NCBI GenBank assembly: GCA_038203565.1
Contig: JBBRDV010000053.1
Location: 1-10,033, forward strand
Reading direction: 5' to 3'
DNA length: 10,033 nt
Source: Atribacterota bacterium
Lineage (GTDB): Bacteria > Atribacterota > Phoenicimicrobiia > Phoenicimicrobiales > Phoenicimicrobiaceae
Of this stretch, positions 1,896 through 9,310 are shown in pieces. The position numbers were made by a program, and so were the translations under genes. The notes under the pieces were generated by a model. It saw nothing but the letters and a program-made list of their open reading frames with translations, made no database searches and had not been told where the DNA came from. The first letter of the stretch is position 1. Every line of letters begins with the position of its first letter.

Positions 1896-4118
1896 ATGAT
1901 ACAAAGCGGAAAAGCAAAGAATGTAGAAATTTTTTTAGTAATATTTATACTACTTTTGGGGCTAAATCTGGGTTTTTTGAATTCCAAATTTACCCTGTTG
2001 TCCTTTGCACAGGAGACCGGGGAAACAGAAGTAACCGGGGAAACAGGAGAGACGTTTGAAGTGCAAGAAGCACCCGCAACTGAAGAAGCTGTAGATGCTG
2101 TAGATACAGAAGAAACAGCGATAGCAGAAGAAACAGAAGAAGAATTGGATATTTCTCTCACTGCTGATTATATTACTTATGAAAAGATAAATGAAGAAGA
2201 CCTAGTTATCGCCAAAGATAAGGTACAACTTAAATACCAGGATATCGAGGTAAAGGCTGAATATTTGAAGATTAATTTAACTACCCACCTTCTCTTCGCC
2301 TCCGGAGAAGTCTTCTTTAAACAAGATGAGACTGAAACTAACTGTGAGGAACTTACCTATAACTGGAAGACTAAAAAAATAATTCTGCTACGATTAAAGG
2401 GTGAATTAACCGGGGAAGGCATCAAGGGAAAGGTATATTATCAGGGAGAGAAGATGGAAAATTTCCCAGAAACCGTGGAACTTACCGGAGGAAGTTTTAC
2501 CACCTGTGAATTAGAAGAACCTCACTATCGCATAGTCGCCAAAGAAATGATTATCTATCCCAAAGACAAGATAATCGCCCGTAATATCTCCTGGTATGAA
2601 GGCAAAACAAAAATAATTACCCTCCCCTATTTCTTGATTTTTTTAGATCGCAAGACCCAAATGCCTATCCTTCCCAAGATCGGACAAAATAGTGCAGATG
2701 GCTGGTTTGTCAAAACAAATTTTAACTATTATATTGATGAAAAATCTTACGGCACGCTTTATATCGATTGGCTGGAAAGGAAAGGGATCGGCATAGGGGT
2801 TGAACATACCTGGGAAATAGGAAGCCAGGATAACCCCGGAGAAACCTCCCTTTACCTCTATCAAATTAAGGAAAAAGATAGCGGAAATATCAATTTAACC
2901 GGGAAGGTAAAATATGGGCAGGAGTTTGGAGATAATATTAAAACACATTTAACCCTGGATTATAGTGGAATGAAAGCTGAAGGAGAGGGATTCCTAAGCA
3001 ATAGTTTGAAATCTCAATTTACTTTGGATAAACAAGGAGAAAAATATAATCTTAATATAAGTGGTAAATATAATTTCAGCGGAAAAGAAATTGAAGATTT
3101 AAGTATTAACGGTAATATAACCATAAAACATAATTATACTTTCAGTGATAATTTAAATTCAGCTCTCACTTTGGTTTACACCGATAAAAACCCGGCTGGT
3201 CAGGAAGCAGCAGACCTGGAATTAGAACCGAAATGGGAGCTAAAATATAAGGGTGAGGGTTATACCTTAAGTTTGACAACTGAAAAGAGATTTGACCTGG
3301 ATGGCGATAATTATACCGGAGAAAATGTTTCTAAGATAATTGACCGCTTGCCGGAGTTTGTCTTTAACAAAAGTGCTGCCACCATCGGAGATACTAAAAT
3401 CACTTATGATATTAATGCCTCGGTGGCACACTTCTATGAGGCAGCTTCCGAGGAAGATAACTGGCGCGGAGAATATATTATTAACGTTAAAAGACCTTTT
3501 AATTTTGGTGAACATTTTACTTTAACCCCTTCGGGAATCTTTCGGCAGGATGTCTATTTAAGCGGGGAAGCTCGCTATTTAGTAGGTGGAAAAGTTGATT
3601 TAAAGGCAGCTTATAATCCTTATATTTCCTCTACTTTATCTTATAATTATAATAAATCGGTGGGTCCGACTCCTTTTAATTTTGATTATATCACTCCTCT
3701 AACCAATACAGTTAGCGGAAAATTAACCTTAACACCAACAGAAAAAATTAAACTGGATTTGTCCACTAATTATAATTTTGTCACGGAAAATTTTGGAAAT
3801 TTAGTGGCCAAATTAGAGTATAAACCAAAAGAGGACTGGAAGATGAACTTTAGTACCTCTTATAATTTAAATACTAAGGAGTGGACCAAGAAGATAAATT
3901 CCACCCTTGATCTGCAGTTAAGCGATGATTGGAGCATCAAATATAAAGGTGTGGTAGATTTAGAAGATTTTAAACTTACCAATAGCGTGGTGGGAATTAC
4001 CCGGGACCTTCACTGTCGGGAAATAACCATAAATTATAAACAGGCTACCAAGTCTTTCTGGGTGGAATTCTACATCAAAGCCTTCCCAACTGAGAAGATA
4101 ACTCTGGGGGGACAGTGA
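1896..4118 (+). CDS. lptD: LPS assembly outer-membrane protein, LptD-like (OstA beta-jellyroll plus beta-barrel)
   Basis: 740 aa with a signal-like N-terminus, acidic linker, OstA-like domain (LTADYITY..V.LKY.D..VKAE..A.GEV), FTTC..PHY motif, aromatic/Gly-rich amphipathic strands, and RDLHC near the C-terminus. Lies directly after lptF/G. Confidence 0.85.
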   Translation: MIQSGKAKNVEIFLVIFILLLGLNLGFLNSKFTLLSFAQETGETEVTGETGETFEVQEAPATEEAVDAVDTEETAIAEETEEELDISLTADYITYEKINEEDLVIAKDKVQLKYQDIEVKAEYLKINLTTHLLFASGEVFFKQDETETNCEELTYNWKTKKIILLRLKGELTGEGIKGKVYYQGEKMENFPETVELTGGSFTTCELEEPHYRIVAKEMIIYPKDKIIARNISWYEGKTKIITLPYFLIFLDRKTQMPILPKIGQNSADGWFVKTNFNYYIDEKSYGTLYIDWLERKGIGIGVEHTWEIGSQDNPGETSLYLYQIKEKDSGNINLTGKVKYGQEFGDNIKTHLTLDYSGMKAEGEGFLSNSLKSQFTLDKQGEKYNLNISGKYNFSGKEIEDLSINGNITIKHNYTFSDNLNSALTLVYTDKNPAGQEAADLELEPKWELKYKGEGYTLSLTTEKRFDLDGDNYTGENVSKIIDRLPEFVFNKSAATIGDTKITYDINASVAHFYEAASEEDNWRGEYIINVKRPFNFGEHFTLTPSGIFRQDVYLSGEARYLVGGKVDLKAAYNPYISSTLSYNYNKSVGPTPFNFDYITPLTNTVSGKLTLTPTEKIKLDLSTNYNFVTENFGNLVAKLEYKPKEDWKMNFSTSYNLNTKEWTKKINSTLDLQLSDDWSIKYKGVVDLEDFKLTNSVVGITRDLHCREITINYKQATKSFWVEFYIKAFPTEKITLGGQ

Positions 4119-4122
4119 ATAC

Positions 4123-4337
4123 AGTATATAGTATATAGTATGTAGTATATAGTGAAGAAAATACAGAGAAAAGATATAAGACTAGTTAGCTGGTTACTTG
4201 GTTAGCTAGTTAAAAACGTAAAATGTAAGATAGATTAGTTGTTAGTGAATGGTAATTCGTATCGAGTATCGCGTGAAGAAAGTCAAGATTCAGGAGCCTA
4301 ATTCGTATCTAGTATTTCGTGAATCGTATCTCGTAAA
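4123..4337 (+). repeat. Mosaic of degenerate 7-mer and 8-mer tandem repeat blocks
   Basis: (AGTATAT)x4 at 4123-4150; TAGTTAGC TGGTTACT TGGTTAGC TAGTTAAA at 4183-4214; degenerate 7-mers at ~4235-4276; TCGTATC TAGTATT TCGTGAA TCGTATC TCGTAAA at 4303-4337. Blocks are separated by A-rich linkers. Confidence 0.75.
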
Positions 4338-4372
4338 GAAAAGAGAAAATAGAAGTCGGAAGAAAACAACAC

Positions 4373-4539
4373 GTAGGGGCGTATTGCATACGCCCTCAGT
4401 AATCCATATAAAACCGTAGGACAAGTGGGACGCTTGTCTATTTTTTTTATTAGTTACTCGGTTGGGGGCAATTGCTGTAGCGACACGGCGAGCCGTGTTG
4501 ATTGAATCTCAAATAGACACGATGCATCGTGTCTCTACA
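4373..4539 (+). repeat. Direct repeat copy 1 (167 bp): cluster of four GTAG-hairpin REP-like units
   Basis: GTAG-GGGCGTAT-TGC-ATACGCCC (4373-4395); GTAG-GACAAG-N7-CTTGTC (4416-4438); GTAG-CGACACGGC-GA-GCCGTGTTG (4477-4500); AGACACGATGCATCGTGTCT-CTAC (4515-4538, minus-strand GTAG unit). Near identical to 5508-5672. Confidence 0.92.
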
Positions 4540-4592
4540 TTACACGCTCATAGATAGACATTTCGTCAGTTTTTGAATTAAGTTTAAAAACA

Positions 4593-5009
4593 CTATTTTA
4601 TAATTTTTAATACAGAGTCTCTATATTCAAAAAAATCTTTAAGATTCCGTCTTAAAATATTTACTACAATTGCCTCATCTATCTTATCGTAGTGATGAAC
4701 TATTATATTTCTAAATTGAGCCATATTTTTTATCGTTTTGTACTGTTTCTTAGAGATAATGCCCTCTTCCTCGAGTACTTGAAAAGTATCACTATAGCTA
4801 TTAGGAACTCTATATTTTTTATCAGCAATAATGTGATTTGCTATATCCACGCATAATTCAATCATCATCTGAAGTGTTCTCTCAATAATTCTTTGTATCT
4901 TCCAATCTCTGGAATATTCTTTTACCGTTATAGTGGAATATTCTTGAATCTGTTTAATATAAGTTTCAAGCTCAGTTAATTTTCTCATTATTAATATTTT
5001 ATCTACCAA
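4593..5009 (-). CDS. hepT: HepT-like HEPN ribonuclease toxin (DUF86), type VII TA
   Basis: RNIIVHHY fits the HEPN Rx4H motif plus the adjacent Tyr; ER.LQ..IE...DIA.HII pattern. Start re-assigned to TTG at 5009 (138 aa), 7 nt after AAGGAGG; overlaps the upstream gene by 11 bp. Confidence 0.92.
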   Translation of the reverse strand: MVDKILIMRKLTELETYIKQIQEYSTITVKEYSRDWKIQRIIERTLQMMIELCVDIANHIIADKKYRVPNSYSDTFQVLEEEGIISKKQYKTIKNMAQFRNIIVHHYDKIDEAIVVNILRRNLKDFFEYRDSVLKIIK

Positions 5010-5424
5010 GTGAAAACCTCCTTTTAAAAATGTCCTCTTCTTTCTTAGAAAAATCAAAATATTCTCTCAAGACTAAGGACTCAAAAGAATGCCTTAAAAA
5101 TGGATCTTTGTCTACCAATATTTTCTTATTCTCTACTATCCTTGCTCTAAGAGTGAGAGGCGCAATATTAAGTATAACCAGGTCGATTTCCTCGGTACCA
5201 AATACATCTATCAACTTTTTTAAAATAACCATCTTCTCTCTGGCAAAATTTGTTCCCTTTTTTAGATATAAAGCTATATCAATATCACTAAGAGGATTGA
5301 CTTTACCCTTAGTAAGACTACCAAAAAGATAAGCAAAGACTACTTTTGAGTAATTTTCTAAAAAATTACTTGCTTCAGGTAAAAGCTCTAATATATTCTC
5401 AGGAAGTTTTTTATCTTTAATCAT
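4999..5424 (-). CDS. mntA: MntA-like minimal nucleotidyltransferase antitoxin, type VII TA
   Basis: 141 aa; AYLFGS-LTKGKVNPLS-DID fits GSx10DxD; IDLVILN third Asp; AAGGA RBS; immediately upstream of the HEPN gene. Confidence 0.92.
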   Translation of the reverse strand: MIKDKKLPENILELLPEASNFLENYSKVVFAYLFGSLTKGKVNPLSDIDIALYLKKGTNFAREKMVILKKLIDVFGTEEIDLVILNIAPLTLRARIVENKKILVDKDPFLRHSFESLVLREYFDFSKKEEDIFKRRFSLGR

Positions 5425-5507
5425 TATAATTTATCCTTATAATTTACTTTATCCCCTGGATTAAACTAAACCGTAAGATAGATATCTCGTTTGTCCATTA
5501 ATTTATT

Positions 5508-5672
5508 GTAGGGGCGTATTGCATACGCCCTCAGTAATCCATATAAAACCGTAGGACAAGTGGGACGCTTGTCTATTTTTTTTATTAGTTACTCGGTTGG
5601 GGGCAATTGCTGTAGCGACACGGCGTGCCGTGTTGATTGAATCGAATAGACATTATGCATCATGTCTCTACA
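5508..5672 (+). repeat. Direct repeat copy 2 (165 bp): cluster of GTAG-hairpin REP-like units
   Basis: First 136 bp match 4373-4508 except one base; the remainder differs by a 2-bp indel and 4 substitutions. Confidence 0.92.
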
Positions 5673-6282: not shown

Positions 6283-6301
6283 AAAATCACCCCTCTATGT
6301 A

Positions 6302-6342
6302 AAAAGTGTCCAAAAAGTGCCTGGCACCTTTGGGAAACTTTT
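6302..6342. repeat. Long palindrome, copy 2
   Basis: AAAAGTGTCCAAAAAGTGCC-T-GGCACCTTTGGGAAACTTTT; its reverse complement matches 595-635 at 38/41 positions; overlaps the lptA stop codon. Confidence 0.85.
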
Positions 6343-7121: not shown

Positions 7122-7146
7122 GTAGGGGCAGACCTTGTGTCTGCCC
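7122..7146 (+). repeat. Solitary GTAG-hairpin REP-like unit
   Basis: GTAG-GGGCAGAC-CTTGT-GTCTGCCC, a perfect 8-bp stem, between lptC and lptA. Confidence 0.8.
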
Positions 7147-9003: not shown

Positions 9004-9023
9004 AAATTATCACTCCTTTTTGT

Positions 9024-9285
9024 TTTGTCGTTAGTTTTCGGTTTTTAGTTAATAGTTTTTTGTTTTTAAACAAAGAGAAACAAGCTGCTAGTTTATAGTT
9101 TAAAATACAAGTAAATATATGGTTTTCAGTTGTCAGTCATCAGTTTACTGTTTAAAACACAAGTTGCAGGATGCAAGATCGTTCAATTTACTGATTGGCC
9201 GATTAAAAAATTATTTTTATATTCTGAATCCTGGATTCTGGTTCCTGGCTTCTTCGTAAAATACGCTTTAAGAGATGCAAGATTC
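9024..9285. repeat. Mosaic of degenerate 7-mer and 8-mer tandem repeat blocks
   Basis: TTTGTCG TTAGTTT TCGGTTT TTAGTTA ATAGTTT TTTGTTT (9024-9065); ATGGTTT TCAGTTG TCAGTCA TCAGTTT ACTGTTT (9119-9153); CAAGTTG CAGGATG CAAGATC (9160-9180); ATTCTGA ATCCTGG ATTCTGG TTCCTGG CTTCTTC (9220-9254). Confidence 0.7.
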
Positions 9286-9310
9286 AAATTTATTTTTAGT
9301 TATTTTTAAT

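Follow-up and report, generated by a model that had tools for sequence, protein, structure and literature searches.

Class I HepT/MntA toxin-antitoxin (TA) pairs have been defined by the motifs RX4HXY and GSX10DXD (Yao et al. 2020, PMC7641770). GTAG REPs, BIMEs and RAYTs have been described in a separate set of papers (PMC3733652, PMC3333891, PMC5581495); according to their accessible parts, the E. coli REPtron locus holds a hicAB TA pair in some strains, and the evidence for RAYTs moving their own repeats in living cells is called indirect (PMC5581495). In the available part of another study, REPs were reported at four duplication junctions in E. coli and argued not to be preferred there (PMC1428787). 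Hotspots of variable gene content without mobile elements (Oliveira et al. 2017, PMC5635113) and restriction-modification insertions between long direct repeats (Furuta et al. 2010, PMC2853133) are the other systems closest to the locus analysed here. A search of the full-text literature, with most subscription papers outside its reach, returned no paper that treats this locus or a TA pair flanked by REP clusters, and the accessible parts of two preprints (bioRxiv 10.64898/2026.09.22.753630 and 10.1101/536078) hold nothing on this arrangement.

In the window, by which we mean the whole stretch of 10,033 nucleotides analysed (contig JBBRDV010000053.1 of the Atribacterota assembly GCA_038203565.1), an mntA-hepT pair lies between two direct copies of a composite GTAG REP cluster. 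The parts are known ones (class I HepT/MntA, GTAG REPs/BIMEs with RAYTs, core-gene hotspots); the locus belongs to the TA and REP families, behaves like hotspot cargo and does not behave like a REP-bounded transposon when the tests for one are applied. As far as the available text of the sources allows the comparison, it shares with the hotspots a variable content between fixed core genes, the lack of an integrase and recombination in the flanking genes, but here one TA module recurs and the exchange appears to span species-level distances (lptD 77-88%). With the restriction-modification insertions it shares an addiction-type module between long direct repeats, the absence of mobile genes and empty sites in relatives, and, as in the available part of PMC2853133, the repeat is longer than 30 bp and the insert shorter than 20 kb and without mobile genes. 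However, no empty site with one exact repeat copy was found here, and in relatives the module occupies this site without being flanked by the repeat. The likeness to described REPs and BIMEs lies in GTAG with an 8-9 bp stem, in doublets with conserved spacers and in site-by-site variation between strains, and the likeness to REPtrons in RAYT-like genes flanked by the same REPs, here in congeners; in contrast to the REPtrons in the text available, four different REP types are joined, no tnpA-REP lies inside and cognate R1/R2 RAYTs were not found in the assembly. The alternation of REPtron and hicAB in E. coli, as given there, is paralleled by a Y1 gene in 3/7 sister-family intervals at the lptD-lipoprotein site. 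The features of the locus are listed below, with L numbers for loci and G numbers for genomes of relatives.

1896..4118, plus strand: lptD-like gene (PF04453), left anchor of the variable interval; adjoins the TA or the empty site in relatives
4373..4539, plus strand: left REP cluster R1-R2-R3-R4, 167 bp, made of the doublets R1-R2 and R3-R4
4373..4395, plus strand: R1, GTAG hairpin; identical copies flank a RAYT-like gene in the congener G008 (L152)
4416..4439, plus strand: R2, variant GTAG hairpin with a T run after it, resembling a terminator on the plus strand
4477..4500, plus strand: R3, GTAG hairpin; exact copy-to-copy identity stops in its loop (4490)
4515..4538, minus strand: R4, GTAG hairpin, inverted relative to R1-R3
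4593..5009, minus strand: hepT, predicted HEPN RNase toxin, 138 aa (PF01934 / NF047751), RX4HXY intact
4999..5424, minus strand: mntA, predicted adenylyltransferase antitoxin, 141 aa (PF18765 / NF047752), GSX10DXD intact
5425..5507, unstranded: right-type leader 5' of mntA, 83 bp; best matches are the right sides of L084, L077 and L105
5508..5625, plus strand: 118-bp exact copy of 4373-4490 with left-type spacers, the recent event
5626..5672, plus strand: older right-type R3-R4 tail with R4 degenerate; matches the L072 right side and the loci L012 and L013
5704..6282, minus strand: probable lipoprotein gene, right anchor; label inferred from the N-terminus, position conserved in relatives

The pair consists of an RX4HXY HEPN protein adjoining a GSX10DXD MNT protein, and by sequence comparison we saw no difference from the class I proteins (adjacent mntA-hepT, PF01909/PF01934) as they appear in the accessible part of PMC7641770. 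Both proteins scored above the NCBIfam type VII cut-offs with their motifs kept, which upholds the earlier assignment as a putative type VII MntA-HepT pair. By analogy with the Shewanella pair, MntA is predicted to adenylylate Tyr107 of HepT, which would silence its RNase. The TA cargo is present in one copy in the genome, and a promoter scan gave no excess over shuffles (6 vs 7.3). The flanking genes encode LptF/G and LptD-like proteins on the plus strand and LptC and LptA/LptD_N-like proteins on the minus strand, and no transposase or integrase was found among the 10 main ORFs scanned, as had been noticed from the sequence at the outset. The probable lipoprotein gene matched no Pfam or NCBIfam family; its product (192 aa) is encoded beside lptC/lptA-like genes across two families and diverges faster than its neighbours. 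Intergenic mosaics of short strand-biased tandem repeats occur at 4119-4330, 1808-1885 and 9010-9290, with blocks that differ among relatives at the lptD end, and another GTAG REP, of a family common in the genome, lies at 7122-7146 between lptC and the lptA-like gene.

The right copy of the repeat (5508-5672, 165 bp) was identical to the left copy (4373-4539) in 160/167 columns (95.8%, E 5e-73). As the preliminary description had reported, the near-identical direct repeats are real in the assembly, and the 968 bp between them (4540-5507) hold mntA-hepT only. Each copy has four GTAG hairpins, with R4 of the right copy degenerate, and single-strand folding of the left copy gave z = -4.7 against 200 shuffles. 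The identification of the hairpins as GTAG REPs was also borne out, with GTAG placed directly 5' of a short stem-loop in intergenic, multi-copy elements. There are about 100 of these hairpins in the genome (102 matches at the chosen threshold, a few overlapping or due to chance), and GTAG REPs occupy 59/1459 crude intergenic intervals. Long direct repeats as such are not rare, since 30 pairs of at least 50 bp lie within 6 kb of each other in the genome. Abundance of the cluster had been named as a chance explanation of the flanking; it was set aside by the whole-genome search, in which the full composite had no other match in the 1.97 Mb.

The R1-R2 and R3-R4 units are doublets dispersed in the genus, with matches in 25/29 family genomes, and among the matches listed no hit covered the whole composite outside the window. 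R2 in its canonical form brackets a RAYT in G023 (L146; NF047646, 102 bits, above the cut-off), and R1 flanks a RAYT-like gene in G008 (L152; NF047646, 63 bits, below the cut-off of 80). A cognate RAYT with the same flanking REP was found in congeners for R1 and R2 and not in the window's genome, where these R1- and R2-associated RAYTs have no close match; for R3 or R4 none was found. A PF01797 search of the window's genome gave six Y1 genes, none with REP-family hairpins nearby. It missed a RAYT-like gene at C63:7103-7594 (L194), recovered by tblastn, which scores above the PF01797 cut-off and below that of NF047646 and carries a different GTAG REP family. RAYT-like genes that might act in trans, as the preliminary description had supposed, are present in the window's genome (C63) and in congeners (L152, L146). 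Because the doublets are dispersed and RAYT-like genes accompany R1 and R2 in relatives, we conclude that the repeats are ordinary REP/BIME material, with a candidate enzyme of the right class present in trans. The C63 gene has its own REPs inside both ends of the reading frame and is 84-88% identical to genes in G003 and G018; the RAYT-like genes at L152:642-1337 (G008) and L150:676-1272 (G014) have their own REP in frame in mid-coding sequence.

The two copies are identical in their first 118 bp, and the differences, namely a substitution in the R3 loop, four further substitutions and a 2-bp indel, are all confined to the final 49 bp (crude P ~6e-4 for the clustering of these six events), so that the repeat has two ages. 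The window's right leader matches the right sides of relatives, which run on into an R1-R2 doublet with its own spacer. In the window, the right copy switches to left-type inside R1, stays left-type to R3 and then has a right-type R4 tail. The right repeat is, judged from these matches, a chimera of a right-type flank, a 118-bp exact left-type copy and a right-type tail. Changes private to the window's genome are present in both copies, and the closest matches of the R2-R3 spacer are the left sides of loci with the TA (L071, L078). The copied tract begins and ends within REP hairpins, which would be expected of RAYT action too. A full right cluster (leader, R1, R2, R3, R4) is the parent required by simple conversion; no sampled TA allele has it, two partial forms only being found, and its absence counts against conversion. 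The whole cluster might also have been duplicated long ago, when the TA first arrived, but this need not be supposed, both doublets being dispersed repeats.

Scanning metagenome contigs yielded 44 loci, and hepT was at least 83% identical in 30 of them (with the near-duplicates L079/L080, L083/L085/L086 and L088/L089); the relatives are metagenome contigs or MAGs, possibly chimeric. In all 30, lptD and/or the same lipoprotein gene adjoined the TA, and no close homologue was found at any other site. None of the 23 loci for which both flanks are represented, 16 of them with both complete, showed a long left-right repeat; the best local left-right score there was 53 (L085, 44/55 columns) as against 298 in the window. 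In relatives, complete flanks of the TA measure 32-471 bp, and the flanks differ in which of R1-R4 they carry; REP content varies by side and by allele, and 3/23 loci had no motif match on either side. In L090 the left TA side has the same four-unit layout, with 91% over window positions 4292-5442. The preliminary description had proposed the pair as a candidate REP-bounded cassette, and this is largely contradicted by the relatives that carry it at the same site without the repeats, a finding that the description itself had named as one that would refute it.

No close hepT was found in the 29 family genomes, and a search of 60 relative genomes with the cargo DNA gave noise only. A genome-contig search found three distant homologues (54-62%) from other bacteria that lie beside neither lptD nor the lipoprotein gene, and the two loci inspected for context among 14 distant metagenome loci (L093, L094) likewise lacked these neighbours. 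MntA had one weak plasmid match (34%) and HepT none. Nine complete lptD-lipoprotein intervals in family genomes are empty. The empty alleles hold partial clusters only: left flank-R1-R2 in L008 and L018, of which L008 has the window's derived R2 variant, and R2-R3-R4-right end in L013. The interval of G014 ends in R3-R4 and sequence resembling the hepT end. As to the window's nearest lptD relatives, G002 is empty and G001 probably empty (N gap, no close hepT); the nearest relative has an assembly gap. In 5/9 empty alleles (L008, L011, L013, L018, L019), left-type sequence is joined to right-type sequence within a REP. Such joins are expected of REP-to-REP deletion and could also mark pre-insertion sites. 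The REPs may therefore serve as exits, and this much of their proposed role as entry and exit points stands; movement to a new site was not seen. The Y1/RAYT-like genes in three of the seven complete sister-family intervals (L027:620-1429, L029:680-1468, L035:686-1474) encode 262-269 aa and lie between inverted terminal palindromes. Also in the sister family, the interval of L025 is 53 bp long and holds a single palindrome, and that of L033 resembles a remnant left by deletion.

On the lptD tree, filled alleles are interleaved with empty ones, and monophyly was rejected by the AU test both for the filled (p 9e-8) and for the empty ones (p 1e-8), with L080 (duplicate of L079) and L083 and L086 (near-duplicates of L085) left out. 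The lptD and lipoprotein trees reject each other as well (14 rows; L080 and loci without one of four genes dropped), so that conflict between trees does not by itself single out the TA and the region recombines generally. In synonymous third-position distance, the TA was closer to the window than its flanking genes were in 21/21 loci. Four assemblies (L072, L073, L074, L082) have TA genes 97.4-100% identical, with lptD at 77-88% and the lipoprotein at 64-74%; their synonymous third-position distances are 0-0.05 for the TA vs 0.19-0.40 in five flanking genes, which include the lipoprotein gene, with GC3 equal to that of the TA. By these distances, the TA is apparently younger than its neighbours. 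Fast LptD evolution or low GC3 was considered as the cause of this apparent youth but found no support, since the gap recurs with LptF, LptA, LptC and the lipoprotein. In some pairs the shared TA tracts end 2-28 nt beyond hepT on one side and 12-14 nt ahead of mntA on the other; in others they extend 96-198 nt through the REPs. Tracts that end at gene ends or pass the REPs fit homologous replacement and do not fit an element with fixed ends. The in-place exchange of TA-bearing tracts could be mimicked by chimeric contigs.

On balance, we favour the explanation that mntA-hepT is a patchy resident of the interval in this bacterial family, swapped in place between related species by homologous replacement, and that the long repeat is a recent left-to-right copy of the REP cluster confined to this lineage; we regard this as probable, though by no means assured. 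The repeat is likely a recent copy because all 30 close relatives have the TA at the same site, with no flanking repeat in the 23 that have both sides. The TA alleles would move by RecA-type recombination, the homology being supplied by a TA allele already in place or by short intergenic patches in common. The REP doublets would come and go on both sides, probably spread by RAYTs in trans, and recombination of a left with a right REP would delete the TA and give some of the empty alleles. In the window, a conversion or unequal crossover starting in R1 and ending in or just after R3 may have overwritten right with left. The recent event noticed earlier from the near identity of the copies would then be the copying of the tract, not the first arrival of the TA at the locus. 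Against the favoured explanation, the empty or probably empty state of the nearest lptD relatives favours a gain in the window's lineage. The lack of any close hepT match in the 29 family genomes makes the TA uncommon and requires that it sometimes gain entry to empty sites, and such entry between hosts 10-35% apart is hard for ordinary recombination and also counts against this explanation.

Alternatively, as in the idea of the preliminary description but restricted to one site, the TA may have been gained with a long target duplication, a donor piece R3/R4-TA-R1 entering an empty R1-R4 cluster in one step in this lineage, with the 118-136 bp between the crossover points duplicated by ends-in recombination or RAYT-assisted strand transfer. 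We consider this possible, albeit unlikely. One event would cover the lateral origin of the TA, the exact tract and the divergent R4 tails, and both the state of the nearest lptD relatives and the empty alleles with matching partial clusters (L008, L018 and L013), the first with the derived R2 variant, agree with it. A pattern of this kind has been described for restriction-modification genes (PMC2853133, available part), and TnpA-REP recombines BIMEs in vitro (PMC3333891, available part). However, L090 already has an intact left block from flank to TA, so that no left junction is needed, and the R2-R3 spacer is closest to left sides that bear the TA. Moreover, an empty allele with the complete four-unit cluster was not found, and no other allele shows a target duplication.

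It is rather doubtful that the TA homes between species into this one site, with a RAYT in trans opening R1 and R3, a long target duplication, erosion of the repeat and REP-to-REP deletion regenerating empty targets. If this were true, the window would show an entry caught soon after it happened, and the RAYT would be a mover of host cargo genes.

We hold an assembly artefact to be improbable, in which strain mixing or bubble merging made or homogenised the right copy and chimeric contigs mimic the TA swaps. The genome is a 218-contig assembly, the arrangement was found in this genome only and common k-mer sizes are close to the length of the exact tract (118 bp). Nevertheless, the two copies have unlike tails, counterparts of every junction type (left flank, TA-side ends, right end) exist in independent assemblies, no orphan right-type cluster was found elsewhere in the window's genome and the TA is the less divergent part in all 21 loci. 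A true non-autonomous REP-bounded element, cut out by a RAYT and inserted at new REP clusters, is very improbable and largely refuted by the constancy of the site and the lack of the repeat in relatives: GTAG hairpins do lie at both ends, just 5/1123 two-gene units in the genome have GTAG REPs on both sides, RAYT-like genes occur in the genome (C63) and, flanked by R1 or R2, in congeners, and a capacity of BIME units to capture neighbouring genes is proposed in the available part of PMC3333891, but the same cargo was not found at unrelated sites, the ends are not conserved across alleles, with varying REP content, no cargo DNA match rose above noise in the 60 relative genomes, the cargo is single-copy, the genome's RAYT has another REP family with no close match there to the R1/R2-associated RAYTs, and the sole plasmid match is weak and to MntA alone.

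The locus is thus a tidy example of known processes, namely REP turnover, a TA in a core-gene hotspot and recombinational exchange of alleles. Among quite divergent uncultured Atribacterota, a single TA module appears to be in circulation at one site without an integrase, and in the sister family that site is occupied by a Y1 transposase gene. If entry needed the REPs and a RAYT, the locus would bear on whether RAYTs move more than their own repeats in living cells.

In another contig of the window's genome, C106 (4.9 kb), 140 identical bases at 1-140 and 4728-4867 could point to a circular element or to an overlap left by the assembly. Distant MntA-HepT pairs with TGCC[A/T]GGCA palindromes on both sides were seen in L049, L050 and L053 (G012, G009, G014), three of 20 other loci. 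The background count for this palindrome family covers the window's genome, where it occupies 12/1459 intervals, and in the window it is present at 593-635, 5' of lptF, and at 6300-6342, between the lptA-like and lipoprotein genes.
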